Shown: positions 4,259 to 62,414 of the stretch, piece after piece
Numbering within the stretch: position 1 is the first letter of the stretch
Layout of the letters: every line of letters begins with the position of its first letter
Notes under the pieces: generated by a model
Database searches by the model: none
Told to the model about the DNA's origin: nothing
Seen by the model: only the letters and a program-made list of their open reading frames with translations
Position numbers and translations under genes: made by a program
Assembly: GCA_017694755.1 (NCBI GenBank)
Contig: JADIMO010000016.1
Coordinates: 18,647 to 82,646 of the forward strand
Direction of reading: 5' to 3'
Length of the DNA: 64,000 bases
Source: Candidatus Cryptobacteroides merdavium
GTDB lineage: Bacteria; Bacteroidota; Bacteroidia; Bacteroidales; UBA932

Positions 4259-4319
4259 AAATTTTTTTTACATATATTTGTAGAGGATTTATTTTGGTAT
4301 GCATTAAAAAATCTTGTTC

Positions 4320-6686: not shown

Positions 6687-6736
6687 ATGCCGGAGGCAAA
6701 CTACACTGACAATAAAATATCCATACACAAAAATAT

Positions 6737-6830
6737 CCCCAAGGAGTCATCCCGAGCGCAGTCGAGTGATCTGTGGAATAAAACTGACAACATGGGGAAT
6801 TATTCCAGACAATAATAAAAACAATGCATA
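6737..6830 (+). repeat. Dispersed repeat, copy 1 (upstream of argG)
   Basis: CCCCAAGGAGTCATCCCGAGCGC (6737-6759) matches 11350-11372 at 22/23; a second similar block lies nearer the start codon. Confidence 0.7.
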
Positions 6831-8047
6831 TGAACAACAAGGTGGTGCTTGCATTCAGCGGCGGTCTGGACACTTCATTCTGTGTCCCTTATCTGAAAAA
6901 TGAAAAAGGACTTGAAGTCCATACGATAATGGTCAATACGGGAGGCTTCTCCAAAGAGGAGGAGGAACGGATTGAAAAACGAGCACTGGAACTGGGTGCA
7001 GCCTCCCATGTGAATGTCAATGCTGTGGACACATACTACAGCAAGGGACTCAAATACCTGATATTCGGGAATGTGCTGAAAAATGCGACCTATCCGCTCT
7101 CGGTAAGTTCCGAAAGGATATTCCAGGCTCTTGAAGTCCTGAAACATGTGAAGAAGCTCGGGGCCGCCTGCGTTGCCCACGGCAGCACAGGGGCAGGCAA
7201 TGACCAGGTGCGCTTCGACATAGTCTTCAACATCCTGGCTCCGGAAGTGAAGATAATAGCCCCTATCAGGGAACTGTCCATCACCCGCAAGGAAGAGATT
7301 GACTATCTGCAGAAACACGGCTTCGACTGGTCGTGGGAAAAGGCAAAATATTCCATCAACCAGGGACTCTGGGGCACGAGCATCGGAGGTGTCGAAACCC
7401 TTTCGTCAGACGGATGGCTGCCTGAGGAGGCATATCCGACCAAGGTCACGAAATCCGGACAGGAACACATCAGAATCGGCTTCGAGAAAGGCGAGCCGGT
7501 GTCATTCAACGGCAAGAAGATGTCTCCTGTGGATGTGATTCTTGCAGTGCGTGAGGCGGCTGCCCCATACGGAATCGGAAGGGACATCCATGTGGGCGAC
7601 ACCATCATAGGCATCAAGGGACGCGTGGCATTTGAAGCCGCAGCCCCGCTCATCCTCATCAAGGCCCATCACCTCCTCGAAAAGCATGTGCTCACAAAGG
7701 GCCAGCTCTACTGGAAGGACATGATTTCCGGATGGTACGGCCAGCAGATGCACGAGGCCATGTACCTCGATCCGGTGATGAGGGACATGGAAGCCATGAT
7801 GGACAGCATGGAGCAGAATGTGAGCGGAGAAGTGGAAGTGGCGCTGATGCCTTATCATTTCTCGGTGCTCGGATGCAAGAGCAGCCATGACCTGATGAAT
7901 TCATCATTCGGTGCCTACGGAGAGATAAACAAGTCATATTCCGGGGAAGATGTGGTCGGATTCACGAAAGTGCTTGCCAATCCGCTGAAGATATATTATA
8001 AGGTGAATGGAGTTGACGCGGCAAGGTCCGTGGAAGGAAAGGAATAA
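6824..8047 (+). CDS. argG: Argininosuccinate synthase
   Basis: VVLAFSGGLDTS, AHGSTGAGNDQVRF, IIGIKGRVAFEA. Confidence 0.97.
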   Translation: MHMNNKVVLAFSGGLDTSFCVPYLKNEKGLEVHTIMVNTGGFSKEEEERIEKRALELGAASHVNVNAVDTYYSKGLKYLIFGNVLKNATYPLSVSSERIFQALEVLKHVKKLGAACVAHGSTGAGNDQVRFDIVFNILAPEVKIIAPIRELSITRKEEIDYLQKHGFDWSWEKAKYSINQGLWGTSIGGVETLSSDGWLPEEAYPTKVTKSGQEHIRIGFEKGEPVSFNGKKMSPVDVILAVREAAAPYGIGRDIHVGDTIIGIKGRVAFEAAAPLILIKAHHLLEKHVLTKGQLYWKDMISGWYGQQMHEAMYLDPVMRDMEAMMDSMEQNVSGEVEVALMPYHFSVLGCKSSHDLMNSSFGAYGEINKSYSGEDVVGFTKVLANPLKIYYKVNGVDAARSVEGKE

Positions 8048-43619: not shown

Positions 43620-44210
43620 ATGCCAGAAGCATATTCAAAAGCGAGGAGACTTTCAGAAGAAGAATTCGGGAGGATTTTCACAAGATGCCGCCCGATGTTC
43701 ATCCGCATTGCCGATTCATATGTACATGACAGGCATGCGGCCGAAGACATCACTGACGACAGTTTCATAAAGCTGTGGGAAAAGCGTGACGAAATAGTGA
43801 CAGGCAACTGGGAATCCTATGCATTCAGGTCCGTCATCAACAGGTGTCTGGACCACATGAAATCCAAGACGGTACAGACATCCGTCCAACAGGACATGCA
43901 CGAGACCGGCAACAGGATGCAGATGTATGAGATAAACTCCCTCAAAAGCTGCGACCCCGACAGACTATTTGCCTCGGAATTGGAATCACTGTTCTGGGAA
44001 TGCGTTGACAAAATGCCTGAAATCACAAGAAAGATATTCATTGCCAGCAGGTTTGAAAACAGCACCTATAATGAAATAGCGGACAGGTTCGGCATCCCGG
44101 TCCGCCAAGTGACTTCCCATATACAATATGCCCTGAAGCTGCTGCGAATAGATCTCCAGGACTATCTTGTGCTCATCCTTATCCTGATGATGTTCAAGCC
44201 ATTGCAATAG
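43620..44210 (+). CDS. ECF RNA polymerase sigma-70 factor
   Basis: AEDITDDSFIKLWEKR (region 2), IFIASRF..TYNEIA (region 4). Confidence 0.9.
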   Translation: MPEAYSKARRLSEEEFGRIFTRCRPMFIRIADSYVHDRHAAEDITDDSFIKLWEKRDEIVTGNWESYAFRSVINRCLDHMKSKTVQTSVQQDMHETGNRMQMYEINSLKSCDPDRLFASELESLFWECVDKMPEITRKIFIASRFENSTYNEIADRFGIPVRQVTSHIQYALKLLRIDLQDYLVLILILMMFKPLQ

Positions 44211-46513: not shown

Positions 46514-47002
46514 CTACAGGAAACGTTTCCCTCCTGCCATGCCAGCTGACGTCCTTGTCCCGAAGTCCCCGGAAGTGATTTCATCAGGTATTTCAGACCT
46601 CGTGAAGACAGAAGTATCTGAAGAGTCACCGTTCAGGACAAGCTGCATCCTGTCGCCGTCTCCGCTGAAAGACACCGAATACGTCCCGGCCCATGCGGTG
46701 CCGTCACTGTATGTGCCTCCCAAGGTATTGCCATCCAGATGCCATGTCCCGTCATAATGCTCGTAATAAGGGCTGTATATTCTCTGATAAAGATCAAAGG
46801 TGCCGTCATTTTCCAATGACAGATAGACATCGGCAGCCTGCAGGCTGTTCCAGCCGGCAAGATGCCATGTCCCAGTAACGCTGCCCTCGCCTGTCCAGCC
46901 GCCATCACCTCCGCCAGGATTATCCTTCCCGCAGGAAGAGAAAGCCAATGCGGTGACAAGCACCGCAAACATCAGTCTTATATGTTTCATCATTTTTCCC
47001 AT
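46514..47002 (-). CDS. Lipocalin-like lipoprotein (last gene of the left SusC/D operon)
   Basis: Lipobox FSSC, VTGTW motif. Confidence 0.75.
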   Translation of the reverse strand: MGKMMKHIRLMFAVLVTALAFSSCGKDNPGGGDGGWTGEGSVTGTWHLAGWNSLQAADVYLSLENDGTFDLYQRIYSPYYEHYDGTWHLDGNTLGGTYSDGTAWAGTYSVSFSGDGDRMQLVLNGDSSDTSVFTRSEIPDEITSGDFGTRTSAGMAGGKRFL

Positions 47003-47015
47003 TCTATGTCATTTG

Positions 47016-49043
47016 TCATAGCCATCCGCCGTTATCCGAATGCGAAGCCCTGGACACAAGCGCAAATTCTTTTGTCACTGTCTTTCCGAACATGCCTGAG
47101 CCGCTGTTGGTGCCGGCCCTGAATGTCACGGTCATGATGCCGGAACCGACCTTGCTGCAGGAGACGAGGATATTGTCACCGAATATGACCGGATCGGAAG
47201 TGATGCCGAGATTGGCCTTGTCCGCAGCCGATATTTCTGCAGATGTCAGCGAAATCTGTGCATTTCCGTCACCGATATAGTCTGCCACCCTTATCTGTGA
47301 CTGTGAAGAAGCCGAAACAGGAATGCATGTGGTCCCGCGGATGTTCATGAGCACCTGATAAGCATCTATGGCTCCGGTCCCCATGAGTCCCCTGAAACGG
47401 GACAGGGTGAGCGTTGTGAGCTGGCCGAAGTCATTGACATATCTTTTCGACCCCGTACAATATTCATTGATTCCGTACACGGATGACAGAAGGATGCTGT
47501 TGAACTGCTCCCTTGTGAATGTCTTGCCGGTCTGGAGGGCATAAGACAGGCCGAGGGCTGCCACTCCCGACACATGCGGACAGGCCATTGAAGTGCCATG
47601 CAGATAGCCGTATCTCCCGGAAGTTATGGTAGACAGGACACCGGAAGCCGAGGAATTATAGTTCGTCTCAAGAAGAGACTGGTACTGGTCACCGCCCGGT
47701 GCGGCGATGTTGCATCCCGGACCGTAATTGGTATAACAGGCCGGAGTGTAGTCACAGGAAATGGCGGTGACAGATATATAGTCCTGATATGCACCAGGAT
47801 AGGCAGACATGCCAGTCAGGTCATTGCCGGCAGCGAAAATCACTATGCCGCCGTTAACTGCATCACAGTTCCTCGTACCGATGAAATAGTCAATCGCCTG
47901 CTTTTCCGCACTCACCCCCTGCTCGAATGCCGTATCGGAAGTGATCCCTCCGGCAGCACCGGCCGTATATCCGAAGCTGCACTGTATGATCGCTGCACCG
48001 TTGTCCGCAGCATACTTGATGGCGCGCGCAGTCGCGGCTGTAGAGCCGCCTGTCTCGCCCTGGAATATCTGGCAGGACATTATCCTGACACCGTCCCCGT
48101 TGCCCGAACCGCCGGCGACACCGCAAACGCCTGTCCCGTTGTTGTTGACCGCGGCTACTGTTCCGGCAACATGTGTCCCGTGGACACCTTCGTCACCAGA
48201 CGTTATGGTCAGAACGGTATTGTTGACAAAATTATAGCCGTGCACATCATCTATGAAGCCGTTGCCGTCATCATCAATGCCGTTGCCGGCTATCTCGCCG
48301 CTGTTGGTCCACATGTTTGCAGCAAGATCAGGATGGTCCCACTGCACACAGTCATCCACCACCGCCACAACGACTCTCGGATCGCCTGTACAAAGTTTCC
48401 ATGCTTCTTCACACCTCACATCGGCCCCTTCACGGATACCTGAATAAATGTCAGTATCTCCGGTATTGATGTAATGCCACTGGTTTCCAAGCATCGGGTC
48501 ATTGAAGTCAGCACCGTCTGTCCTGGTGACTGCTCCCCCTTCCGAAAAAGGAACGACCTTTCCTGTGCCTTCCATTTCCACCTTTTGGCAGAACTCCACA
48601 TTGCTCACTTCGGAAAACCCGGCCACGGCCCTGGCAACCTTGTCCAGATCTGCAGATTCATCGAACTTGACCATGTACCATCTGTGCAGTCCGGCTGCAC
48701 GCGTACGTTTCTCATTCCTCTCATCCACAGGGAAAAGCCTCTCCACTGATGTCACACCGGCACCGGCAAGAACCGCATCAAGTCCTGATATGCCCGAACG
48801 GGTGGACGGGCCTTCATCCGAACGGGTCATTGCAGAATTCTCCACGTGAGAAACCGCTTCGGCACTGAAATAGACCAGAAGGCTGCCCCGGGCTGCATTT
48901 TCCGATGTAAAGATCAGTTTGGACTCCACCACCGGGTCCGCTCCTGACTCCGCTCCCGGGCCGGGCATCAGTTCCTTCTCCGCACATGAAGCCATTATCA
49001 TGGCAGGGAACATAATTCCGGCAAAGATTTTCAAAATTTTCAT
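47016..49043 (-). CDS. S8 (subtilisin-family) serine peptidase lipoprotein
   Basis: Lipobox MASC; triad contexts VAVVDD, HGTHVAG, GTSMACPHVSG; oxyanion AAGN. Confidence 0.93.
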   Translation of the reverse strand: MKILKIFAGIMFPAMIMASCAEKELMPGPGAESGADPVVESKLIFTSENAARGSLLVYFSAEAVSHVENSAMTRSDEGPSTRSGISGLDAVLAGAGVTSVERLFPVDERNEKRTRAAGLHRWYMVKFDESADLDKVARAVAGFSEVSNVEFCQKVEMEGTGKVVPFSEGGAVTRTDGADFNDPMLGNQWHYINTGDTDIYSGIREGADVRCEEAWKLCTGDPRVVVAVVDDCVQWDHPDLAANMWTNSGEIAGNGIDDDGNGFIDDVHGYNFVNNTVLTITSGDEGVHGTHVAGTVAAVNNNGTGVCGVAGGSGNGDGVRIMSCQIFQGETGGSTAATARAIKYAADNGAAIIQCSFGYTAGAAGGITSDTAFEQGVSAEKQAIDYFIGTRNCDAVNGGIVIFAAGNDLTGMSAYPGAYQDYISVTAISCDYTPACYTNYGPGCNIAAPGGDQYQSLLETNYNSSASGVLSTITSGRYGYLHGTSMACPHVSGVAALGLSYALQTGKTFTREQFNSILLSSVYGINEYCTGSKRYVNDFGQLTTLTLSRFRGLMGTGAIDAYQVLMNIRGTTCIPVSASSQSQIRVADYIGDGNAQISLTSAEISAADKANLGITSDPVIFGDNILVSCSKVGSGIMTVTFRAGTNSGSGMFGKTVTKEFALVSRASHSDNGGWL

Positions 49044-49134
49044 TTTATTATCCGATTGTTGTTGATTGTCATAAGCAACATAAGCCGGATGTCCCGAAAG
49101 AGACTCCGGCCAAGTTGACGTTAACGGCAGGCCG

Positions 49135-51528
49135 TCATCTGACAGATGTGCATTTTCCCGATGCTCCGGCTACCCTGATCCTGAAAACTCCATCTGACGG
49201 AAGCGGCTCACATACCCGAGTCTTTACAGGAAGTGTCCTGAGTCCCGCCGCAACCGGCTCCGGAAAGACATTTGCTGTCTTGAAGACCGGCTCCTGACGG
49301 AAGATGCTGCAGCCGTTTCCTGCTGAAGGCACAGACATGTAGCCGGAAGAAAGTCTCTGCATGGTCTGTACGGCTGAAGTTTCCGATGCCGCAGCCTGTG
49401 ATATTTCCGTGCTTCCGGCAAAGAATACCGCAATCGTTGCCGCATTTGAAACCTGGTTTCCGTTCACGATGCCGACACCGGCCTCTATATTCGTATTGAG
49501 GGATGTCAGTCTGCCTGAAGCATCAACTCCGAACACTACAGGATCATCCACTACGGTTTCATCCGAATCACTGAAATATGTAAACAGCACATAAGCAGAG
49601 AGATTGTCACCGGTAACCCAGCCTCCGAAGAAACTGCCGCGGTCCTCCTGTCCCGGGAATGTCCCGTCAAGTGTCAGAGTGGAAGCTTCCGGATCATACA
49701 CCGCATTCCAGGACATCCCGTTTGCGACACCAAGATCACTTACTACAAAATTCGTGCTGCTTCCTTCCGTCGGAGACACTTTGAATGTGTTCCTGGAAGT
49801 AAAGTCACTGCCGTCCTGCGAACCGCCCGGCACGGTGCATGTCATGGTGTAGTTGCCGGCTGCAAGTGAACCGGAATATGCATAATCACTTGTCAAAAGG
49901 TCAGCGCGTGCAACAGCACTCTTGCCGTAGCTGTTCGAGGCCTGCAAAAGCAGGGTATAGGATGTTCCGGAATCAAGCCGAATGAAGATATCCCAATATT
50001 TTTCTCCGGAATTTATCGCTTCCAGATAATCAGACATGTCGCTGCCGTTGGCGGCAATGATCTCCTCTGCAGTAAATCCGAGTGCAAGGGCAGCGTCTAC
50101 TGCCGAAGTATTCATTAAGGTACCGCTTAGGAAACTCAGTTCGCTTCCGGTGATTTCATATACAAGGGATGTCTCATCCGGACATTGCGATACATATTCT
50201 GCGGCCTCAGAATACTCGCTGACCTTGTACAGCTTGGCCTGGATGTCACACTCAGGGACAGCCCCTTCCATGGCCGGGAAGTAGAATGAATCGGATGCGG
50301 CGGATGCGGCGACAAGTTCTCCGGAAGTGCCTGCAGGCACAGCCACTACGGTATACAGGCCCGCTGCCAATTCAGCTTCAACTGAAACGGATTCAGCACC
50401 CTGCTCAAATCCGTTCACCTCATATACATTTTCCAGGGTCCCGTTGACAATGCCGTTTACATATTCCTGAAGTGCAGCACCTGAAATCTCACCGTTTACA
50501 AAGGCATAGCTGATGCCCGTGACATCCGCTCCGTATGAGAAGTCAATGACTGCGGTTGCAGTCTCGTTATCAGATCCGACTCTCATGCCGCCATAGCTTG
50601 CAGTCAATGAGTAGTCTGTAGCCTCATAGCCCGGAAGGACAATGCGGAACAGCCCGTTGGCATTTGCCGGAGCCCCGTTTGGAACGAGGTCGCAGATAAA
50701 GGCCAGGCCACCTGTCGGGAATGTGATGATTCCGTCAACCAATGTCCCCAGTCCGTTCTGATAAGTGGCAATGATATGGTCTCCGGCTCCCTCGCTCGAC
50801 TCGGAAATTCCGACAAACTGCTGGGGGATGAATACGGCCTGCGGGTCGCTGCAGTTAATGGTAATATTGGTAGGAGTGTAACTGAACTGGCCGGAAAGTT
50901 CCTCTTGAGTGGCACCGAAGAATTCCGTAAGGAATGGCCAGCCGTACATGTCCTCTATCATATATATCCCTTCCTGGGTCTTGTGCCTGTGGACAGTGAC
51001 ATCCAGTTCGACATTTCCGCCGCCCCAGGCGGTATTGAACCAGTCATCGCGGAACTGCCCCGTCCCCATCTCTTCCCATGGCCATGGGGTGACTGTCACA
51101 TAAAGGCTGCTGATTCCATAAGGGCTTGTATTGTTCTCGTCATTCAGCAGGAGCCCTATTGTGTAGTCTGTATCTTCGACAAGTTCTTCCCTCTCGAATG
51201 ATATTACAAGCGAAGCTTCGTCTTCACCGTCAGCGAAGGTGACACTGTTCGGCACAGTGAACAGGCTTCTGTCAGCCTCATTTTCAATTCCGGACAGGTC
51301 GGAAAGTATGTTCACGGTCAGTTCGCCGTCAGTCTGCAGCCTCATCACAGGGACAGTCACGGAAGTCACTCCGTCCTCTATGTCATACTGCGTCTGTGTC
51401 GTTGTCGGGAAGTAGACCTGGGCCCCGTCCACCTGCGGCCCCGGCTGGAATTCCTCCTCGGTGCAGGACACGAGGCCTCCGGCCAGAACAGCAAGGGCTG
51501 AAAACAAAATCGTTCTTATCTTTTTCAT
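49135..51528 (-). CDS. Large acidic surface lipoprotein, multi beta-domain
   Basis: Lipobox LVSC followed by acidic TEEE; beta-rich; no catalytic motif recognised. Confidence 0.75.
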   Translation of the reverse strand: MKKIRTILFSALAVLAGGLVSCTEEEFQPGPQVDGAQVYFPTTTQTQYDIEDGVTSVTVPVMRLQTDGELTVNILSDLSGIENEADRSLFTVPNSVTFADGEDEASLVISFEREELVEDTDYTIGLLLNDENNTSPYGISSLYVTVTPWPWEEMGTGQFRDDWFNTAWGGGNVELDVTVHRHKTQEGIYMIEDMYGWPFLTEFFGATQEELSGQFSYTPTNITINCSDPQAVFIPQQFVGISESSEGAGDHIIATYQNGLGTLVDGIITFPTGGLAFICDLVPNGAPANANGLFRIVLPGYEATDYSLTASYGGMRVGSDNETATAVIDFSYGADVTGISYAFVNGEISGAALQEYVNGIVNGTLENVYEVNGFEQGAESVSVEAELAAGLYTVVAVPAGTSGELVAASAASDSFYFPAMEGAVPECDIQAKLYKVSEYSEAAEYVSQCPDETSLVYEITGSELSFLSGTLMNTSAVDAALALGFTAEEIIAANGSDMSDYLEAINSGEKYWDIFIRLDSGTSYTLLLQASNSYGKSAVARADLLTSDYAYSGSLAAGNYTMTCTVPGGSQDGSDFTSRNTFKVSPTEGSSTNFVVSDLGVANGMSWNAVYDPEASTLTLDGTFPGQEDRGSFFGGWVTGDNLSAYVLFTYFSDSDETVVDDPVVFGVDASGRLTSLNTNIEAGVGIVNGNQVSNAATIAVFFAGSTEISQAAASETSAVQTMQRLSSGYMSVPSAGNGCSIFRQEPVFKTANVFPEPVAAGLRTLPVKTRVCEPLPSDGVFRIRVAGASGKCTSVR

Positions 51529-51543
51529 AAGGATCTATCTTAA

Positions 51544-53205
51544 TTATTGCACATTATAGGACATACAAGGATCCGGATTGTTGGTGGTCAGCAGGATGGT
51601 ATTCCTCTGGGCTACAGAAATAGGAATGGTCTGGTTCCACCAAGGTGCTCTTCCGTCCGTGTCAAGCTTTGCTCCGGATGGTGCGTTGTTGGAAGCATTC
51701 TGGATGCTCATGTTCAGCCTCTTCATGTCAAACAGGATAAGTCCTTCGCCCCAGAGTTCTATCCTTTTCTGGAAAATAATCTCATCAATGAGGGCATCGC
51801 CTGAAGAGCTGGCGGCAGGAACGGTATAGCCCGGAGCCCTGTTGGACATGAAGTTCTCAAGAAGAGTCCTTCCGGTGCCTTCATCATAATGGGCAGTGGC
51901 CTCGGCCTCGATCAGATACATTTCCTCAACTCTCATTAGAGGGATACTCGTTACATTTGCAGTTGAATAGTCAGACTTCTCACCGCCTGCAGTATGGAAC
52001 TTGGTGGAAGCATAAGCAGCCACAGTCTCAAATTCGTCTTCAGTGAGATTGGTATATGGCTCGAACGCGGACCAGTCACGATCAGGGTTGACGAATGAAA
52101 GCCTTCTGAAGTCGTTGGCGCTGATGCGGGCGTAAAGGTTGGACGGGATGCCAGGCTGAGCCAAATATCCATATCCGTACATAGCGTCTAGACTCATGTG
52201 GGCACTCCATGACAGAAGGTTGTTGAGGACAGTGTCAGTGGACTGGATCATCGCCCACATCCATGCCGCATTCACGGTGTTGAATCCTGTGGCAGGGTCA
52301 AGCCACTGTGCTGATGTCATGATTGTGCATCCTGAAGCATCTATAGCCTTGCGAGCATATTCGGCTGCAAGCCTGTATGCCTCCACTCCAGTCGGCACAT
52401 TTGCATAGTTCAGATTGTCGAAGCCTCCGAGCCACAGATATGCCCTTGCCTTCAGTCCGTACACGACAGCCAGTGAAGGCATGTTCTTCCTTGCAGGAGT
52501 ATAGTCGGCAAGGCATGCCTCTGCATCGTCGAGGTCAGAGAAGATGAATTCAAATGCCTGCTCGCGGGTCATGCGCGGATTGTTGCGCAGCTGGTCCACT
52601 TCAGATGCCTCTGTAACAAGAGGCACGGTCAGCCCTTCCACGGCAGCCCTCTGGCTTTCATAGCCGGTGAGCAGAGGAGCATTTGCCGGAAGCGGGTCGT
52701 AATGACGGACAAGGTCCAGATAGAAAAGGGCGCGGAAAGCCTTCGCTATACCTCTTGACTCCTTTGTGTCCTCATCATTGCCCACAGTGGCAAGCACATC
52801 ATTGGCAGCCTTGATGAACTGGTAATAGTTCAGATAGTGCATGGATGACCAGCCCATTGAGGCATTGAGGGCATTCGATGCACACGGATACAGCCATGGC
52901 TGCCAGCGGTCATAATACTGGTTACCTCCAGGAAGGTTCTGTGCTACAGGGAACACATCTCCGGCAAGCCGGTCATTGGCTCCAAGGATTCCCGGATAGC
53001 CGAAATCTACATGTTCTCCCAAATCAAGATAGTTGGTGATCATTATGGTCGGGATGGAAGAAATCATTCCTTCCAGAGCCATAGAAGATTCGGCAATCTG
53101 ATCTGCCGTGGCATAGCCGCCTTCAGGGAAGGTCTCCTCGATACATCCCGGAAGGAGCATGACGGCTCCGGCAAAAAAGCAGGTCTTTCTAAGTATACTG
53201 TTCAT
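51544..53205 (-). CDS. SusD/RagB-family lipoprotein (left)
   Basis: Lipobox LPGC; RALFYLDLV, LMRVEEMYLIEAEA, RIELWGEG. Confidence 0.93.
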   Translation of the reverse strand: MNSILRKTCFFAGAVMLLPGCIEETFPEGGYATADQIAESSMALEGMISSIPTIMITNYLDLGEHVDFGYPGILGANDRLAGDVFPVAQNLPGGNQYYDRWQPWLYPCASNALNASMGWSSMHYLNYYQFIKAANDVLATVGNDEDTKESRGIAKAFRALFYLDLVRHYDPLPANAPLLTGYESQRAAVEGLTVPLVTEASEVDQLRNNPRMTREQAFEFIFSDLDDAEACLADYTPARKNMPSLAVVYGLKARAYLWLGGFDNLNYANVPTGVEAYRLAAEYARKAIDASGCTIMTSAQWLDPATGFNTVNAAWMWAMIQSTDTVLNNLLSWSAHMSLDAMYGYGYLAQPGIPSNLYARISANDFRRLSFVNPDRDWSAFEPYTNLTEDEFETVAAYASTKFHTAGGEKSDYSTANVTSIPLMRVEEMYLIEAEATAHYDEGTGRTLLENFMSNRAPGYTVPAASSSGDALIDEIIFQKRIELWGEGLILFDMKRLNMSIQNASNNAPSGAKLDTDGRAPWWNQTIPISVAQRNTILLTTNNPDPCMSYNVQ

Positions 53206-53222: not shown

Positions 53223-56200
53223 TTAGAATGTAATGGATATACCGCCTGATATGGTACGTACAGGTGCATAATAGAAAGGATTCGTAGAGCCGGAGATTGA
53301 CTGTCTCGGATCAAGACCCTTGCGGTGTGACCAGTACCACACGTTGTCGCAGGTTGCATAAACGCGGAGGCTCTCAACGAGGAACTTGCGCGTAATGCGC
53401 TGAGGAAGCGTATAACCGATGGTTATGTTCTGGATATTCAGATATGACGCGCTTGTAAGGAATCGGCTGGATGCTCTGTTGGAATCTGTATCCCCATAGG
53501 CCAGACGCGGGATGTCCGTGCCAGTATTGGTCGGAGTCCATGAATTCCAGAGGTCACGGTGATATGTGGAGCCTGTGGATGTTCCTGTAGGAGACGACAT
53601 GAAGAAAGCATATCCGCTGTCATATACGAGACCGCCTATCTGATAGGTGCAGTTGACAGAGAAGTCAAGGCCTTTCCATGAAAGCGAGGTACCGAAACCT
53701 CCGTAGAGGTCAGGAATGGCATCCCCCTGGATCTCACGGCCATTGGCAAGTGCTGCAGAATAGTCGGTGGTAGTCACTCTTTCCCTTTCCTGCGTCTGTT
53801 CATTTGTCTGGTACGTGTACCACATTGAAAGACCTGTTTCCTGATCTACGCCTGCATAAGTCGGAAGATAGAAGGAGAAAAATGAATTGCCTTCACTGCG
53901 GAAATAGTTCCCGTCAAGAAGACCGGTCAGGGAGCCGTCGGAAGTGGTGTTGGTCTTATACTCGTCAGGCAGCCTGAGGAGCTTGTTGCGGTAGTGCGTC
54001 ATGTTGAGGTTGAAGCTCCACACAAGGTCCCTGGTCCGGATGAGGTCTGCATTCAGTTCTATTTCCACACCTCTGTTGGCCATGTCACCGATATTGGTAT
54101 AATAGTAGTTGTAGCCGGCCTCAACAGGCACAGGAAGGGAGAAGAGCATGTCTGAAGTCTTGCGGTTGAAGAAATCCACGCTACCGGAAAGACGGCTGTT
54201 CCAGAATCCGAATTCAACTCCCACATTCAGGTTTGCGTTGGTCTCCCATGTGATGTTCTCATTTCCTTTCCTCTCGAATACGGTAGTGATGCCGCCGCTT
54301 CCGTCATTGGAAATGGAATAATAGTCCACATAGAGGTAATCGGCAATATTGTCATTACCCTGGGAACCATAGGATGCCTTTACTTTCAGCATATCCACCC
54401 ACGGTGCCTTGAACCAGCTCTCGTCGCTGAGAATCCAGGCTGCACCGACAGACCAGAAGTTTCCCCAGCGGTGATCCGGATGGAAACGGGAAGAAGCGTC
54501 ACGACGGTATGAAGCAGATGCGTAGATACGGTTGTCATAGTCATACTGGCCTCTGAAGAAGTATCCTTCGTTGTTATACTCGGCCACGGATGATCCTGAT
54601 CTTGAATTGTCGACCACTGCACCGCTGAGCTCCCAGTTGTCATATGAGAACATTCCGCTTCTGGAGGCATAGAGGCCGTACTCCTTGTTGTTATACATCT
54701 CATGACCAAGGAGCAGGTCCATATTGTGCTTGCCGGCAAAAGTCCTGTTGTAGGAGATAAGCTGCTGGAGGTTGTATGCAATCTGCCTTCCATGCTGCTT
54801 TGTGACAACTCCGCCGGACTCCGCAAACTGTCCGTAATAAGGGTTGAGCATAGTGGTGGAACGTATCTCGTCAATGGTCACATTTCCGTTGATGGTCACC
54901 TTGAGACCTTCATAAAGGTTAAAGTCAGCAAATCCGCTTGCGGAGAATGCATTTCCTTCATTTATGTATTTGTTGAGCTGGATGTCCTGAAGGTCGTTGC
55001 TTGTGCCTCCGTTCGTACGCACGGATCCTCCGTTACGGCCGTCACCGGTATCATAAAGCTTGTAGCCGTATTCGTCATACATGATGTTCCCGTTCCCGTC
55101 ACGGATGTAGACCGGATATATAGGAGCCATCATATAGGCTGTGGCAAAGGCATTCCCTCCGTCTGAAGCACCTTCGGAATCGATGTCATTTCCGTTTTCC
55201 CAAAGGAAATGGGTATATGACATGTTAGCTCCCACCTTCAGCCATTTCTTGGCCTGATAGTCAGCGCGCAGACGGGCCGTAAGACGCTCGTTGGCAGATC
55301 CGGCGATGATTCCCGTATTGTCGAGATAGCCGAGAGACGCATAGAAGTTGGATTTTTCGGTGGCACCGGCCACGCTGAGATTATATTCCTGACGGAAAGA
55401 ATTCTTGTAGATTTCATCCATCCAGTTGTCCGGGTAAAGGAGATATTCCTGGCCCTGATACTCCACGAGACGGCCGAGGGTGGCATTCGGATTGAGACGT
55501 CCGTTGCTTCCGATGAGCGTCTGGCCATTTGGAACGGTATATACATTATAGCCTACACCGCCGGCATTGTTGGAAATAAGAAGCGAGTTGGCTGCCACAT
55601 AGGCGTCAGTGGCACTCATGCCCTGCTTGAGAGTATAGTCGTTGTACAGAGCCTTGTATGCCATCTCATAGAACTCGCCGGCATTGTCCACCAGGTCATA
55701 TGACTGGAGCGCCTTGTTGTTGAGTCCCCATTTTGCATCAAATTTCACCGTTGCCTGACCAGCCTTTGCCTTCTTGGTTGTGACCATTATCACACCGTTG
55801 GCACCTCTCGCACCATAAAGGGCATTGGAGGCGGCGTCCTTCAGCACGCTTATGCTTTCGATATCCGCAGTATTGATGTTGTTGATGTCCCCCTCATACG
55901 GTACGCCGTCCACTACCCACAGCGGCTTGTTGTCAGCGTTCACCGAACCGTATCCACGCACATAAATGGTCTGGTCCGAACCCGGACGGCCTGATGAAGA
56001 GGCGAACTGCACACCGGCAATCTTTCCTACGAGAGCATCCGAAACATTGGTGGACTGTGTCTTTATGAGATCATCGGTCTTCAGGACCTTGGCTGAACCT
56101 GTGAACGCCTCCTTCGTAGTCGTTCCGAAAGCGACCACAATCGTCTCATCCAGCATTTCAGCGTCAGGAAGCATGGAGACATTGATGAGCGCCCTGCCGG

Positions 56201-56459
56201 CCACCTCGATTTCCTGGCTCTGATATCCTATTGACGAGAATATGAGGGTTGCGTCAGAAGCCACGAGAATAGAATACTTTCCGTCGCTGTCAGCAGTTCC
56301 TCCTGTCAGAGTCCCTTTGACCTGGATGTTCGCACCCGGGACAGGCTCTCCCGAATCAGCATCCAAAACTATTCCCGAGACCGTCACATCCTGGCCAAAG
56401 GCCAGTCCGGCAGTCATCAGAATAGCCAACATAGTAAGAAAAAGTCTGATTTTTCCCAT
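53223..56459 (-). CDS. SusC/RagA-family TonB-linked outer-membrane protein (left)
   Basis: PLWVVDGVP, SVLKDAAS.ALYGARGANGVIMVTTK, ITWET, C-terminal Phe. Confidence 0.96.
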   Translation of the reverse strand: MGKIRLFLTMLAILMTAGLAFGQDVTVSGIVLDADSGEPVPGANIQVKGTLTGGTADSDGKYSILVASDATLIFSSIGYQSQEIEVAGRALINVSMLPDAEMLDETIVVAFGTTTKEAFTGSAKVLKTDDLIKTQSTNVSDALVGKIAGVQFASSSGRPGSDQTIYVRGYGSVNADNKPLWVVDGVPYEGDINNINTADIESISVLKDAASNALYGARGANGVIMVTTKKAKAGQATVKFDAKWGLNNKALQSYDLVDNAGEFYEMAYKALYNDYTLKQGMSATDAYVAANSLLISNNAGGVGYNVYTVPNGQTLIGSNGRLNPNATLGRLVEYQGQEYLLYPDNWMDEIYKNSFRQEYNLSVAGATEKSNFYASLGYLDNTGIIAGSANERLTARLRADYQAKKWLKVGANMSYTHFLWENGNDIDSEGASDGGNAFATAYMMAPIYPVYIRDGNGNIMYDEYGYKLYDTGDGRNGGSVRTNGGTSNDLQDIQLNKYINEGNAFSASGFADFNLYEGLKVTINGNVTIDEIRSTTMLNPYYGQFAESGGVVTKQHGRQIAYNLQQLISYNRTFAGKHNMDLLLGHEMYNNKEYGLYASRSGMFSYDNWELSGAVVDNSRSGSSVAEYNNEGYFFRGQYDYDNRIYASASYRRDASSRFHPDHRWGNFWSVGAAWILSDESWFKAPWVDMLKVKASYGSQGNDNIADYLYVDYYSISNDGSGGITTVFERKGNENITWETNANLNVGVEFGFWNSRLSGSVDFFNRKTSDMLFSLPVPVEAGYNYYYTNIGDMANRGVEIELNADLIRTRDLVWSFNLNMTHYRNKLLRLPDEYKTNTTSDGSLTGLLDGNYFRSEGNSFFSFYLPTYAGVDQETGLSMWYTYQTNEQTQERERVTTTDYSAALANGREIQGDAIPDLYGGFGTSLSWKGLDFSVNCTYQIGGLVYDSGYAFFMSSPTGTSTGSTYHRDLWNSWTPTNTGTDIPRLAYGDTDSNRASSRFLTSASYLNIQNITIGYTLPQRITRKFLVESLRVYATCDNVWYWSHRKGLDPRQSISGSTNPFYYAPVRTISGGISITF

Positions 56460-56494
56460 AAGTTGATTGATTAATTAAACATAAATATTGAATA
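56439..56494 (-). repeat. Outer inverted homology, left (shared susC 5'UTR and first codons)
   Basis: 24-bp TATTCAATATTTATGTTTAATTAA (56471-56494) and 22-bp TATGGGAAAAATCAGACTTTTT (56439-56460), identical to 57725-57748 and 57758-57779 in inverted orientation. Confidence 0.9.
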
Positions 56495-56544
56495 TTGTTG
56501 TGTCCCACTGTTCCGTATTTTTCCGCCGTATGGAATCCAGTCAA

Positions 56545-56572
56545 AATCCTGCGCCTTTAAAAGGGCGTTTTT
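56545..56572 (-). repeat. Left inverted repeat, candidate invertase crossover site
   Basis: Minus strand reads AAAAACGCCCTTTTAAAGGCGCAGGATT; 25/28 identical to 57500-57527. Confidence 0.85.
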
Positions 56573-56587
56573 CGCAGCAAAGTCTTA

Positions 56588-56619
56588 CAAAGTTTGCAAT
56601 AATAAATCAATATTCCAAA
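56588..56619 (-). promoter_or_regulatory. Candidate promoter inside the segment, pointing at the left susC
   Basis: TTTG-N20-AAACTTTG (one mismatch to TAnnTTTG); an alternative AGACTTTG lies 10 nt downstream. Confidence 0.4.
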
Positions 56620-56749
56620 CTTGTCTGAAAGTTTCAGAATGATTAACAATCAGTATTTTATAATATTTGGCTTTTAAATCATAAAAAATAATGCCTGAAA
56701 TGACGACATTTGTAATGTCCAAATTATAAAATATTCGCAAATAAAAATT

Positions 56750-57376
56750 TTAAACGAATTTATCACTTTTTTCATTTTTATCATTAATATGTGCTGTACA
56801 ATACTTTCTGAGCGTATTTCTATGTATTCCGTATTTCCTGGCCACCTTGGAAAGCGGTATTCCCAAATCAATCATTTCCGTGATTTTATCCCATTCCTTA
56901 TATATTGTAACCTTCTTTTTAGAACTTCCGGGAGGCCTTCCCAGCCTTATGCCTGATTGTTTTTTCAATGCAAGTGCCTCTTTTGTGCGTTCAGAAATAA
57001 GGATTCTTTCGATTTCTGCTGCCAAAGCAAAAGCGAATGCAATGATTTTGGAATTGATATTGTCCGAAAGGTCAAAATTGTCCTTTATGGAATGGATGGA
57101 AATGCCCTTGCTTGAGCAGATGTTGAGTATTGACATGATCATAAGCATGTTGCGGCCAAGTCTCGATATTTCGGTGCAGATGAGCATGTCGCCATTTCGC
57201 ATTTTCCGTATCATCCGTCCAAGCGTGCGCTTTTCAAAAGATTTTGTCCCGGAGACCGATTCCGATACCCATTTGTCTATCACAATATTGTGACTTTTAC
57301 AATATTTCCTGATCTCAAACTCCTGGCTTGAGTATGTCTGCATCTCTGTGCTGACCCTGATGTAAGCATAAACCAT
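56750..57376 (-). CDS. Serine site-specific recombinase, resolvase/invertase type (Mpi-like)
   Basis: YAYIRVST with catalytic Ser, SVSGTK, EISRLGR, AEIERILISERTKEAL, LGRP, C-terminal HTH. Confidence 0.93.
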   Translation of the reverse strand: MVYAYIRVSTEMQTYSSQEFEIRKYCKSHNIVIDKWVSESVSGTKSFEKRTLGRMIRKMRNGDMLICTEISRLGRNMLMIMSILNICSSKGISIHSIKDNFDLSDNINSKIIAFAFALAAEIERILISERTKEALALKKQSGIRLGRPPGSSKKKVTIYKEWDKITEMIDLGIPLSKVARKYGIHRNTLRKYCTAHINDKNEKSDKFV

Positions 57377-57499
57377 TTTTGTGTGGATTAGAATATTATC
57401 AATTTACTGTCTATCATAGATTTGATGCATACAAACATTATATGTTCCGTTATAATACACTTAAATTCAAAGTATTGCAAATGGAGTTCTGATGTCCAT

Positions 57500-57527
57500 A
57501 AAAACGCCCCTTTAAAAGTGCAGGATT
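57500..57527 (+). repeat. Right inverted repeat, candidate invertase crossover site
   Basis: AAAAACGCCCCTTTAAAAGTGCAGGATT. Confidence 0.85.
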
Positions 57528-57724
57528 CAGGCCAGGGTAAGACAGATCGGGGAATGCAGGTCAGCCGCCGCGGGAAACGGACGGGAGAGACAGCAGAAGG
57601 ACCTGAAAGGCGTGTACGGGCACACACACGCAAAGACCGGAAGAGATGCAGGACATAAACCGGGACGGGACAAGGCAGGACCTGACACGGCAAGAGGCGG
57701 CAAAGGAGCGGTTGGATACAATGC

Positions 57725-57779
57725 TATTCAATATTTATGTTTAATTAAAAGTTTCACTATGGGAAAAATCAGACTTTTT
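57725..57779 (+). repeat. Outer inverted homology, right
   Basis: Same 24-bp and 22-bp blocks as 56439-56494. Confidence 0.9.
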
Positions 57780-60700
57780 TTCACATTGGTGCTGATTTCT
57801 CTGTCGCTTTCCATGACAGCACAGAATCTGACTGTGTCAGGACAGGTTACAGATGATGGAACAGGGGAAGGAATCCCTTTTGCATCTGTAATCGTAAAAG
57901 GCACCACACATGGTGTCGCCACCAATGCAGACGGTTTTTATTCCATCTCTGTTTCTGATGGGGCAATTCTGGAATTCAGTTCCATAGGCTATGTCAAGGT
58001 TGAACTTCCCGTCAACGGAAGCTCCGTCCTGGATGTCGCACTGAAAACAGACTCCGAATTCATCGACGAAACAATTGTGGTCGCCTATGGAGTACAGAAG
58101 AAATCTTCATTTGTAGGAGCCGCAGAACAGATCAGCGGAGAAAAGCTGGAAACACTGAGTTCCACAAACATCTCCAAATCCCTTGAAGGCGCCGTTGCCG
58201 GACTCCAGACATCAAGCTCATCCGGAACACCGGGCTCATCCGCCAGCATCAGGATCAGGGGTCTCGGTTCCGTATCAGCTTCACAGGAGCCTCTGCTCAT
58301 TGTAGACGGAGTGCCGTATGAAGGCAGCCTCAACTCAATTTCATCCAATGACATAGAATCTCTTACCGTATTGAAGGACGCAGCCGCGAACTCAATGTAC
58401 GGAGCGAGAGGATCCAACGGTGTGATAATCATAACCACCAAACGCGGTACTTCAGACCGCGTAAGTGTCACATTTGACGCAAAAGTCGGCGTGAATTCAC
58501 GCGGTGTGCCGACATACGATGTCATAACCAACCCGGCCGACTATTATGAAATGACATGGGAGGCTGTAAGAAACTCCCTGTATTACGGCGGGCAGATGTC
58601 CCTCGGACAGGCAAACGCCTATGCATCCGGAGCGCTCATCGACAATTATCTCCGCTACAACATATACAAAGGTATATCTAACACGGAAGTGATTGATCCG
58701 GCCACAGGAAAAATCAACCCATACGCATATGATCTCAAATGGAACGACAACTGGAACAAGGATGTGTTCCGCAACGGCGTAAGACAGGAATACAACCTTT
58801 CTGCAAGCGGCGGTTCGGAGAAGACGCAGGCATACATGTCAGTGTCTTACCTCAATGACAAAGGCTACGTGCCAAGTTCCGGATTCCAGAGAATCTCAGT
58901 GAGAGGCAAGATTGACCAGTCCATCGGCAAATACATCAAGGTGGGCCTCAATGTAGCGTACTCGAATACTGTCCAGAATCTGTATAACTCCTCCGAAAGC
59001 CAAGGTTCATATTCCAATCTGTTCATGTTCGGACAGATGATAGCTCCGATATATCCTATTTTCCAGTATGACCTCGAAACAGGCGAGCGCCTTTACGGAA
59101 GCAACGGAGAGGATCTCTACGACTGGGGAGAAAACCGCGCCTATGGACAGTTGTCAAACCCGTATGGCCAGCTCATGACATCAAAGAATGAAGTCATATC
59201 CGACAACATTTCTTCAAGAGGTTACATAGACATCCAGATTCTCAAGGATCTCAAGTTTACCGCAAATGTGGCTTACGACACATTCATCGACAAGTACGAC
59301 TATTATACTACACCTGTCGGAGGAGACGCAGCCACTGTCAACGGACGCGGAACACAGCAGACCTCAAGACATTCAGCACTGAATGCCAACCAGCTCCTCA
59401 GCTATACCCCGACTTTCGGAGACCACAGCCTGAGCATACTCCTCGGTCATGAAACGAAGAGCGATACGGAATATTATCTGTCCGGGCAGATGACCAACTT
59501 CGTGGACCCGAACAACACGGATTTCGCCAACGGCGTAACATATCAGAACCTCACATCCCAGACATCCGAGTATTTCCTGCAGGGTGCATTCGTCAGGGCT
59601 GAATACAGCTATGCGAACAAATATTATGTGTCAGGCTCATACCGTATGGACGCATCTTCAAGATTCGCTCCGGACAAAAGGTGGGGAAGCTTCTGGTCCG
59701 TGGGAGCATCCTGGAACATGAAGCAGGAGAACTTCCTTCTCGGTGTGGAAAATGTCAACGCCCTCAAGATCAAGGCCAGCTATGGCACACAGGGAAATGA
59801 CAACATCGGTGTGACCAAGGTATATGAAGATCTGTATGCCATCAACAGGGTGGACGGAGAAGCTTCCATTGTCAGGACCTTCCGTGCGGCTCCGGACGTG
59901 ACATGGGAGAAATCCAACAACTTCAACGCCGGCATAGAATCAAGATTCTTCGACAGGCTCTCGGTAAATGCGGATTTCTTCATCAAGGAGACCAAAGACA
60001 TGATCTACTACCGTCCTCTCGCGCCGAGCCAGGGTTCCCCTGCAACGCAGCTTGTAAACGACATGGACATGAAGAATACGGGTATCGAATTTGAAATCAG
60101 TGCAGACATCATCAAGACGCCGAATGTCCTCTGGAATGTCACGGTGAACGGTACCCATTACAAGAACGCCATCACAAAACTTCCTTCAGACCAGCCGCAG
60201 GACGGATACAACAGCGGCAGCTACTGGAGAGAACTTGGAGGCTCACTCTATGACTTCTACATTTATGAATGGGCAGGAGTTGACAGGGAGACCGGACTTC
60301 CGTTGTACAACAGGTACTCACAGGAAGGCAAGGGAGGAGAATTCCTCGGTACGACAAGTGTCGCAACCAATGCAACCAACAGGGCCGTGGGCAAGAGCGC
60401 GATTCCGGATCTTTACGGAGGCTTCTCCACATATCTCACTTTCTACGGTTTCGATGTCAGCGCATCTTTCGCCTACCAGATAGGAGGATGGACCCTTGAC
60501 TCCAACTACCAGTCGCTCATGAGTGCGGGATCAGTCGGAACAAACTGGCACAAGGACATTTTCCAGAGATGGACTCCGCAGAATACTGATACGGACGTGC
60601 CGCGTCTCCAGAATGCCGACCTCAATGCGGCCCAGACTTCAACACGCTTCCTGACAAAGGCTTCATATCTGAGTCTCAGAAACGTGACCATAGGGTATAC

Positions 60701-60884
60701 ACTTCCGAAGAGAATCACTGACAAGATCGCCATGCAGAATCTCAGAATCTATCTCACAGGAGACAACCTCTGGTATACATCCAAAAGAAAAGGACTTGAT
60801 GTGCGCCAGTCCTTCAGCGGAGAGACAGGGTTCACATACTCAGCCCTCAGAACCATATCTGCAGGCATATCCTTCACCTTTTAA
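57759..60884 (+). CDS. SusC/RagA-family TonB-linked outer-membrane protein (right)
   Basis: Start MGKIRLF at ATG 57759, same as the left paralogue; TVLKDAAANSMYGARGSNGVIIITTK, VTWEK, C-terminal Phe. Confidence 0.96.
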   Translation: MGKIRLFFTLVLISLSLSMTAQNLTVSGQVTDDGTGEGIPFASVIVKGTTHGVATNADGFYSISVSDGAILEFSSIGYVKVELPVNGSSVLDVALKTDSEFIDETIVVAYGVQKKSSFVGAAEQISGEKLETLSSTNISKSLEGAVAGLQTSSSSGTPGSSASIRIRGLGSVSASQEPLLIVDGVPYEGSLNSISSNDIESLTVLKDAAANSMYGARGSNGVIIITTKRGTSDRVSVTFDAKVGVNSRGVPTYDVITNPADYYEMTWEAVRNSLYYGGQMSLGQANAYASGALIDNYLRYNIYKGISNTEVIDPATGKINPYAYDLKWNDNWNKDVFRNGVRQEYNLSASGGSEKTQAYMSVSYLNDKGYVPSSGFQRISVRGKIDQSIGKYIKVGLNVAYSNTVQNLYNSSESQGSYSNLFMFGQMIAPIYPIFQYDLETGERLYGSNGEDLYDWGENRAYGQLSNPYGQLMTSKNEVISDNISSRGYIDIQILKDLKFTANVAYDTFIDKYDYYTTPVGGDAATVNGRGTQQTSRHSALNANQLLSYTPTFGDHSLSILLGHETKSDTEYYLSGQMTNFVDPNNTDFANGVTYQNLTSQTSEYFLQGAFVRAEYSYANKYYVSGSYRMDASSRFAPDKRWGSFWSVGASWNMKQENFLLGVENVNALKIKASYGTQGNDNIGVTKVYEDLYAINRVDGEASIVRTFRAAPDVTWEKSNNFNAGIESRFFDRLSVNADFFIKETKDMIYYRPLAPSQGSPATQLVNDMDMKNTGIEFEISADIIKTPNVLWNVTVNGTHYKNAITKLPSDQPQDGYNSGSYWRELGGSLYDFYIYEWAGVDRETGLPLYNRYSQEGKGGEFLGTTSVATNATNRAVGKSAIPDLYGGFSTYLTFYGFDVSASFAYQIGGWTLDSNYQSLMSAGSVGTNWHKDIFQRWTPQNTDTDVPRLQNADLNAAQTSTRFLTKASYLSLRNVTIGYTLPKRITDKIAMQNLRIYLTGDNLWYTSKRKGLDVRQSFSGETGFTYSALRTISAGISFTF

Positions 60885-60893
60885 ACGACGGAG

Positions 60894-62414
60894 ATGATAA
60901 AGATGAAAAAATTTCTGATATTGATTACTGCCGGACTTCTGGCCGCAGTATCCTGCGAAGACAGTTTTGATGTAAAATATACGGGATACCTCACAGGTTC
61001 CAGCGCATCAGATATGGTGGAAGAGGATCCTACATTCCTCAACTCGTATGTCCAGGGTCTCTATACCTGGATGGTAACTCCCGGCATTTCCTATGACGGA
61101 CATGACGATTTCGGTTTCCTTTCCTGCACCATGTGCACTGACTTCATGGGAGTCGACATAGCACTGAACGGTACGCAGAACTGGGGATATTTCGATTACA
61201 TGTTCCAGTACGGAGGAGCCATTTACGTACGTTCATACCAGATGTGGAGTGAATTCTTCACACTCATCAACAATGCCAACACGATAATCGACTTCTTCGG
61301 GACAAGCGAGCCCGGCGATGCGACTGCGAGAGGATATCTCGGACAGGCATATGCCATCAGGGCATTCGCCTACACTTACCTGATACAGCTTTTCCAGGAC
61401 CCGGTGACGACATCCGGAGAACTGAATGCCAATGCCCCAACGGTTCCTCTTGTCTACGCCTCAAGAGACGGCATGTCTGCTGATGAAGTGTCGGCAAGAC
61501 AGGGAAGGGTGCCGATGAACCTGGTAATGGAACACATAGAGTACAACATCACCCAGGCACTGAATTATCTCAACGGCTACAGCCGTTCCTCGAAAAATGA
61601 AATCGACTATTCGGTGGCACAGGGCATTGCGGCAAGATACTACCTTCTCACACAGCAATGGGAAAATGCCGCCGCTGCAGCAAATGCAGCAAAGCAGGGA
61701 TACCAGCTCATGGACCAGGCCAGACTTCAGTCCGGCTTCATGGATGTGGAGGATGCGGAAGTCATGTGGGGCTTCAACCAGACAACAGAAACGCAGACCA
61801 CATACGCATCATTCTTTTCACAGATGTCAAATGATTCACCTGGCTATGCCGGACTTGACCAGATGTCAAAATGCATAGACAGGGGGCTCTATGACCAGAT
61901 ACCGAATTCAGACTGGCGCAAGAGCCTGTTCAACGGTGCTGACGGTGACCCTTCTGCAAGTGCCGACACTCCGGGCGCCCAGAGGCCTTATGCCGCAAGA
62001 AAATTCGGATACATGGACCAGTGGCTCCAGGACTATATATACATGAGAGCTGCCGAAATGTATCTCATCGAAGCCGAAGCATATGCAAGACTCGGAGACG
62101 GCAGGGCATCAACGGTGATGAGCGAACTCATGGCACAGCGCAACCCTGCATGGAGCGCCTCTGCCACGGTCGATGAAATCCTGCTTCAGAGGAGGATAGA
62201 GCTTTGGGGAGAGGGATTCTCATACTTTGACCTCCGCAGGACCGGCACAGGGATCAACCGTTCATACACCGGCACGAACCATACAGCTGAATCAAGGATA
62301 TCGGTAGAAGCCCACAGCAACCTGTGGTGGTTCCAGATTCCTCAGACTGAAATGGACAACAACGACTTCATCAATGATGATGAACAGAATCCATACGAAG
62401 ATCCTAACGCATAA
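60894..62414 (+). CDS. SusD/RagB-family lipoprotein (right)
   Basis: Lipobox AVSC; IRAFAY, MRAAEMYLIEAEA, RRIELWGEG. Confidence 0.93.
   Translation: MIKMKKFLILITAGLLAAVSCEDSFDVKYTGYLTGSSASDMVEEDPTFLNSYVQGLYTWMVTPGISYDGHDDFGFLSCTMCTDFMGVDIALNGTQNWGYFDYMFQYGGAIYVRSYQMWSEFFTLINNANTIIDFFGTSEPGDATARGYLGQAYAIRAFAYTYLIQLFQDPVTTSGELNANAPTVPLVYASRDGMSADEVSARQGRVPMNLVMEHIEYNITQALNYLNGYSRSSKNEIDYSVAQGIAARYYLLTQQWENAAAAANAAKQGYQLMDQARLQSGFMDVEDAEVMWGFNQTTETQTTYASFFSQMSNDSPGYAGLDQMSKCIDRGLYDQIPNSDWRKSLFNGADGDPSASADTPGAQRPYAARKFGYMDQWLQDYIYMRAAEMYLIEAEAYARLGDGRASTVMSELMAQRNPAWSASATVDEILLQRRIELWGEGFSYFDLRRTGTGINRSYTGTNHTAESRISVEAHSNLWWFQIPQTEMDNNDFINDDEQNPYEDPNA

Follow-up and report, generated by a model that had tools for sequence, protein, structure and literature searches.

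The 983-bp segment at positions 56545-57527 is very probably a self-contained invertible promoter cassette, whose own serine invertase toggles one promoter between two SusC/SusD operons. It lies in a stretch of 64,000 nucleotides (the window) from the genome of a chicken-gut member of the Bacteroidales (2.5-Mb assembly in 140 contigs, 89% complete, 51% GC). A preliminary description of the window had proposed such a self-contained switch between the two operons. An either/or toggle is the best reading of the data because both orientations occur naturally, the promoter is kept in 17 of 19 related cassettes, and the leaders outside the recombination sites lack promoter boxes of this type.

An AT-rich segment with its own serine invertase

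The segment is defined by the following features:

56545-56572, left inverted repeat (IRL); inferred full recombination site approximately 56551-56578, putative crossover at GG 56564-56565
57500-57527, right inverted repeat (IRR); inferred full site approximately 57494-57521, putative crossover at CC 57507-57508
56750-57376, minus strand, Mpi-like serine DNA invertase P0001, 208 aa, catalytic Ser9; Pfam Resolvase and HTH_7

Compared as inverted repeats, IRL and IRR are identical at 25 of 28 positions, and the 983 bp that they enclose have a GC content of 35.6% compared with 51% for the genome. A search of the window with the 28-mer at up to three mismatches retrieved only the IRL/IRR pair, with none in 100 shuffles. 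The repeats and the AT-rich segment are thus as the preliminary description had reported them. A genome scan for additional copies of the 28-mer, which it had suggested, found none besides IRL and IRR; the pair is unique in the 2.5 Mb at up to five mismatches.

The invertase ORF is the sole gene within the segment. P0001 combines the two domains of small serine recombinases, an N-terminal catalytic domain (Resolvase PF00239, E 4e-34) and a C-terminal DNA-binding domain (HTH_7, 24.6 bits versus a cut-off of 23.8). Its best family model is NF009949 (Mpi master DNA invertase), with a score of 260.7 bits that stays under the family cut-off of 272. Among solved structures, the Gin invertase is the best match, and the catalytic Ser of Gin is aligned with Ser9. 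The ORF is intact and its catalytic residues are complete; R7, S9, D63, R72 and R75 are invariant across nine relatives. The domains, the minus-strand position and the best model agree with the earlier claim of an Mpi-like serine recombinase that points left inside the segment.

Two SusC/SusD operons face outward from the segment

Each repeat lies upstream of an outward-facing susC paralogue, as had been described, with a SusC/RagA gene followed by a susD gene on each side. The features outside the segment are:

53223-56459, minus strand, left SusC/RagA transporter P0002, 1078 aa (TIGR04056, 803 bits)
46514-53205, minus strand, left operon beyond susC
51544-53205, minus strand, left susD
49135-51528, minus strand, left operon, 797-aa protein of no known family
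47016-49043, minus strand, left operon, S8 subtilase
46514-47002, minus strand, left operon, lipocalin-like protein
57759-60884, plus strand, right SusC/RagA transporter P0003, 1041 aa
60894-63999, plus strand, right operon beyond susC: susD, a 293-aa protein without family match, and a further ORF leaving the window
60894-62414, plus strand, right susD
56427-56514, minus strand, left susC leader and first codons, inverted repeat of 57705-57791
57705-57791, plus strand, right susC leader and first codons, counterpart of 56427-56514
57528-57704, plus strand, GC- and purine-rich stretch of 177 nt (61% GC), right leader only, strain-variable

The left and right SusC proteins are 41% identical and the SusD proteins 27%. 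The start of the right susC, which had been placed at the GTG of an ORF at 57612, was corrected to the ATG at 57759. The accessory genes of the left operon encode an S8 subtilase and a lipocalin-like protein and no glycoside hydrolases, a hint that the substrate is a protein or peptide. For the accessory genes of the right operon, no family was matched.

The last approximately 44 nt of the two leaders together with the first codons form an outer inverted-repeat pair, with arms of 44 nt and 34 nt that are 84-85% complementary. With a near-identical leader and near-identical first codons in both operons, either operon would be equally served. The leaders share the motif AATATTTATGTTTAA (56471-56494 and 57725-57748), which is kept in most cassettes of the clade described below. 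The motif reads as a tiny ORF, ATG TTT AAY TAA, located 14-15 nt ahead of the susC start; in two relatives (L023 and L024) this ATG and susC share a reading frame. Elsewhere in the genome the motif recurs exactly once (C18:1155), with no adjoining susC. For the GC-rich stretch of the right leader, no left-side counterpart, no significant fold and no Rfam match was found. It is substituted by a different sequence of about 75 letters in one metagenome contig (X6), and in other contigs the same repeat is joined to the same leader via just 31 nt. A structured RNA in the leaders was considered and rejected, as Rfam gave no match and the fold z-scores were -0.64 and +0.78.

Both orientations of the segment occur in natural populations

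Logan contigs from four chicken-gut runs, which come from four studies, were aligned to positions 55500-58700. In X1, X6 and X7, from three of the studies, positions 56563-57518 are found on the opposite strand between near-identical flanks, with the joints within the repeats. The X1 contig, 30 kb long and with a depth of 34, is colinear with the window to 56553, continues on the opposite strand from 57518 to 56563, and is on the plus strand again at 57510. X6 is a 7-kb inverted contig, and X7 comprises two short contigs that span both inverted junctions. The fourth run (X5) and an independent ENA contig (L002) have the orientation of the window and bridge both repeats colinearly. Flanks of the metagenome contigs are about 99.9% identical to the window. 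A comparison of orientation across assemblies had been put forward as a check of the switch, and it shows both orientations to be present. The joints fall in the 28-bp repeats, at least 85 nt upstream of the susC start codons and outside the leader and coding repeats.

The two orientations could also be fixed differences between strains that go back to rare past inversions, with a switch that is no longer active. Each run showed one orientation only, and no sample showed both, as judged from contigs, which keep the majority form. We nevertheless consider this explanation very improbable. The inverted X1 and the non-inverted X5 share SNPs of the segment at 56626, at seven positions in 56757-56837 and at 57356. 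One haplotype in both orientations indicates that the flip is recent and not an old fixed rearrangement. A related cassette likewise occurs in both orientations: the invertase genes of L130 and L131 are 100% identical, and the flanks are 100% identical yet exchanged. Furthermore, no catalytic residue is missing from the invertase, whose ORF is intact, and matching core dinucleotides are kept in all 19 anchored cassettes (see below).

The inverted arrangement might alternatively be an artefact of assembly at the repeat. An assembly-graph artefact is unlikely, since we infer that the identical repeat stretches are much shorter than the word sizes of the assemblers. In addition, long contigs from independent studies agree on the inverted arrangement.

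Three further observations were made. Strain comparisons place more divergence in the invertible segment than in its flanks: X1 shows 11 differences in 956 nt of the segment versus one in approximately 1100 nt of each flank, and in one group of metagenome contigs (L146-L161) identity is 88-97% for the invertase genes and 95-99% for the flanks. Several metagenome contigs, and the locus L022 (G031:C16), often end just beside the invertase gene. Such ends would be expected if mixed orientations break assemblies. Finally, two metatranscriptome runs (X15 and X17) contain a small share of the stretch.

Related cassettes belong to a separate clade of Mpi-like invertases

Homologues at 41-70% identity were found in 14 of the 36 genomes searched from the genus of the window. 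The closest of these, where flanks are readable (four loci), sit between divergent susC genes. A scan with one genome per species yielded 591 relatives. The layout susD, susC, invertase, susC, susD was observed for 15 of the 17 closest relatives (53-76% identity), which belong to uncultured Bacteroidales and Muribaculaceae whose hosts include deer and horse. Among the more distant Mpi-family matches (Bacteroides, Prevotella, Phocaeicola and others), none showed this layout. In a maximum-likelihood tree, 20 toggle invertases and one further invertase on a too-short contig form a clade with support of 100/99, apart from the 59 other Mpi-family sequences in the tree. From one species to another, the same SusC orthogroup can be on one or the other side of the invertase, with varying partners.

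Terminal inverted repeats, low GC and a serine recombinase would also suit a mobile element, either a serine-transposase IS or a resolvase cassette, that was inserted at this position by chance, and P0001 gives a weak match to the IS607 model. Such an insertion, or an artefact of assembly as the source of the two orientations, is hardly credible as an explanation of the segment. The IS607 match of 26.5 bits is far under the cut-off of 110, the segment has a single genomic copy, and in more than 19 species the cassette lies at the same place, flanked by divergent susC pairs. The low score and the single copy set the segment apart from an IS607-type element.

The recombination site has a palindromic core around an asymmetric dinucleotide

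For the analysis of sites and promoters, 19 cassettes were anchored on the best mutual match between their two ends; since these cassettes are kin, the counts given for them are not independent trials and overstate independence. Across them, the site core is a palindromic AAACG-NN-CGTTT. Many sites are flanked on one side or both, at a distance of four bases, by GCAC or ACAC, which extends the site to about 28 bp. The central dinucleotide is equal at both ends in 19 of 19 cassettes. It varies among cassettes (CC, CT, GA, AC, TC, GT) and is palindromic in none of the 19. A matching, non-palindromic core fits a serine recombinase that makes 2-nt staggered cuts and needs an inversion outcome.

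In the window the cores read AAAAG-GG-CGTTT (56559-56570) and AAACG-CC-CCTTT (57502-57513). Crossover probably takes place at the GG of the left and the CC of the right core. The TTTAAA shared by both repeats, which the preliminary description had taken for their centre, was rejected as the crossover centre. The GG, located 6 bp further in, is favoured because of the family palindrome AAACG-NN-CGTTT and the dinucleotide that co-varies between the ends. The earlier impression that the repeat is unlike Mpi sites probably does not hold: the half-sites of AAACG-NN-CGTTT are of the invertase type, and the core of the clade appears to resemble hix sites and the Mpi repeat consensus.

Two single positions of the left site may be mentioned. 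In the left-flank piece of X6, no change at 56562 is among the differences listed (four more are unlisted), which is weakly in favour of a crossover further in. Window position 56555 (position 11 of the left repeat) is C and is T in L002, X5, X6 and X7. A T at this position would improve the palindrome of the left site, and the C may reflect a private SNP or an error in the assembly consensus.

A conserved candidate promoter points outward at one end of the segment

Two elements resembling promoter boxes are located inside the segment:

56588-56619, minus strand, predicted outward cassette promoter; -7 box AAACTTTG 56588-56595, -33 TTTG 56616-56619, 20-nt spacer
57417-57424, plus strand, perfect TAnnTTTG box TAGATTTG, pointing out of the invertase 5′ end

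The Bacteroidetes -7 box is given as TAnnTTTG in PMC3090145, which cites Bayley 2000; AAACTTTG is one mismatch from this sequence. The predicted promoter points across IRL into the left susC. At the invertase 3′ end, an nAnnTTTG on the outward strand, 22-26 nt inside the site centre, is found in 17 of the 19 related cassettes, and seven of the boxes are perfect. At the invertase 5′ end it is found in one of 19, and shuffles averaged 0.86 (maximum 5). A TTTG-type -33 element lies approximately 20 nt upstream of the conserved -7 box. The candidate promoter that had been marked at 56588-56619 therefore matches an element that is kept in position and direction.

No -7-type box was detected in the susC-sense leaders beyond the sites in 15 of 19 and 18 of 19 cassettes on the two sides, and in the window neither leader has one. 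As the leaders are without such a box, the cassette is the only recognisable promoter source. In the orientation of the window, the left operon is predicted to be ON and the right operon OFF. The right operon is predicted to be ON in the inverted form, as found in X1, X6 and X7.

The cassette might flip without a clean either/or result. A second promoter, such as TAGATTTG, or promoters in the leaders would then keep both operons on, and inversion would shift the relative level of the operons or the level of the invertase. This appears unlikely. The perfect TAnnTTTG box on the outward strand at the invertase 5′ end could partly express the right operon in the present orientation; promoters for ECF sigma factors are invisible to a scan for the -7 motif, and a sigma-70-family gene is located nearby (43620-44210). 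However, a -33 TTTG is missing upstream of the TAGATTTG box, and relatives do not share the box: only one of the 19 cassettes has one at this end. In most relatives such a promoter would have hardly any space or none at all, because the invertase start codon is only 19-80 nt away from the site. Chance alone would, by our estimate, yield about 0.3 perfect boxes in the non-coding, AT-rich part, and the leaders are without -7-like boxes. The preliminary description had allowed for TAGATTTG as an independent driver of the right operon. It cannot be an independent fixed promoter, because it lies inside the segment and would invert with it. As a candidate for the main promoter it was dropped after the family comparison, and it is probably a chance occurrence or a minor promoter. 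The conserved promoter at the invertase 3′ end would be the sole promoter that is handed from one operon to the other.

An extra TATTGCAAA inside each end of the segment had also been described and is present at 56593-56601 and 57473-57481. The left copy is part of the promoter (spacer and beginning of the -7 box). No counterpart of the right copy was found among related cassettes; it may be a remnant or due to chance.

For the invertase's own promoter, no consistent element was found across the related cassettes. This promoter may sit outside the segment, since just 19-40 nt separate the site centre from the invertase start codon in several relatives. Transcription of the invertase may then enter from the flank, the flank being alike on both sides.

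Proposed mechanism and comparison with known systems

Cutting, rotation and rejoining are the usual steps of serine recombinases. In the proposed mechanism, the invertase would bind the two sites of about 28 bp, whose half-sites resemble GCAC-N4-AAACG, cut both at the central dinucleotide (GG 56564-56565 and CC 57507-57508), rotate and rejoin the ends, leaving the segment flipped. In the orientation of the window, the promoter would read the left operon with susC, susD and the S8 peptidase. After inversion, it would read through the other site into the right susC/susD operon. It seems likely that P0001 itself does the flipping, and the two operons would be expressed in a mutually exclusive manner.

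The closest parallel in layout is the Hin/hix system of Salmonella. Its H segment of about 1 kb carries the invertase gene followed by one outward promoter between short inverted sites, and the hix sites have A-tract half-sites around a 2-bp core. The cassette described here shares the inverted sites, an internal serine invertase and an outward promoter downstream of the invertase gene near one end. The invertase gene lies inside the inverted sites and both orientations were found; the promoter near one site is conserved in 17 of 19 cassettes, and the half-sites enclose an asymmetric, matching 2-bp core in 19 of 19. The layout is Hin-like with two-sided output. The Hin promoter serves one side only, and the either/or result is achieved via the repressor FljA, whereas here a complete operon lies on each side of the cassette, so that no repressor would be needed for an either/or result. 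Hin also requires Fis and an enhancer, neither of which is expected in Bacteroidota. P0001 belongs to the Mpi branch, whereas Hin belongs to the Hin/Gin branch. The G segment of phage Mu with its invertase Gin is similar in that a serine invertase selects between alternative gene sets. In Mu, however, the genes are inside the segment and the promoter is outside, whereas here the promoter is inside and the genes are outside.

The closest protein family is Mpi of B. fragilis (NF009949), and in that system, too, Bacteroidetes-type promoters of surface components are flipped. The Mpi gene is located outside the 13 dispersed regions on which its product acts in trans (PMC4747536). In contrast, P0001 has one site pair in the 89%-complete genome, sits inside its own segment and belongs to a separate clade. 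Phase variation of SusC/SusD in B. fragilis is carried out by the tyrosine-recombinase shufflon Tsr0667, with multiple inversions that involve the 5′ ends of the genes (PMC4747536). The SusC/SusD shufflons (Tsr0667 of B. fragilis, and B. thetaiotaomicron) resemble the present cassette in that inversion picks the SusC/SusD set and the paralogous susC genes share their 5′ ends. They differ in that here a serine enzyme is the only recombinase between the susC genes, a single inversion is involved, and the joints lie in 28-bp repeats.

In a systematic survey, SusC genes were enriched as targets of inversion and Mpi-family recombinases were enriched as neighbours; the layout was not described there (PMC9881135). 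Our full-text literature search found no published description of a two-sided serine-invertase SusC/SusD layout, which is not proof of absence. At least one published survey based on PhaseFinder filters out invertible regions if they overlap coding sequence (PMC8748976). Such a filter would drop cassettes that hold their own recombinase gene, and the class would be hidden from surveys that use it.

Gut Bacteroidota take up nutrients mainly through SusC/SusD complexes, which also abound as surface antigens and include presumed phage receptors. If one promoter is handed to either of two complete transporter operons, a clonal population could hedge between two surface or nutrient states, and the switch might serve nutrient choice or the evasion of phages or immunity. 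Chickens, deer, horses and other hosts harbour many uncultured Bacteroidales and Muribaculaceae with the same module. We give an even chance to a broader reading, in which a dedicated Mpi-like clade provides a portable cis-acting toggle module, consisting of invertase, promoter, asymmetric sites and shared leader. The module would have been joined repeatedly to different SusC/SusD orthogroups and occasionally to other barrel pairs, would expose one of two transporter/lipoprotein sets at a time, and would have been missed by inverton catalogues that discard gene-containing regions. If this is true, the toggle module would be a general way for uncultured Bacteroidales of the animal gut to show one set, for example as a defence against phages or antibodies that target SusC. 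A small and apparently cofactor-light invertase with a defined 28-bp site could also be a genetic tool in Bacteroidota.

Variant cassettes

Some relatives deviate from the arrangement of the window. In one locus (L029, G034:C24), an invertase with 49-51% identity lies between divergent OMP_b-brl_4 barrel genes instead of SusC genes. The first approximately 150 nt of these barrel genes are identical (4287-4453 and 6671-6837). Perfect -7 boxes are found on both sides at the repeat boundary, and a -33 TTTG on one side only. The crossover in this cassette may separate the -33 from the -7 element, which would make it a split promoter. Other cassettes carry additional genes. In L051, L052 and L056, an extra gene lies within the invertible segment between site and invertase. 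In L026 (4861-5889), the extra gene at this place is PD-(D/E)XK transposase-like (PF12784), and the segment of L023, approximately 4 kb long, carries two AAA-ATPase genes.
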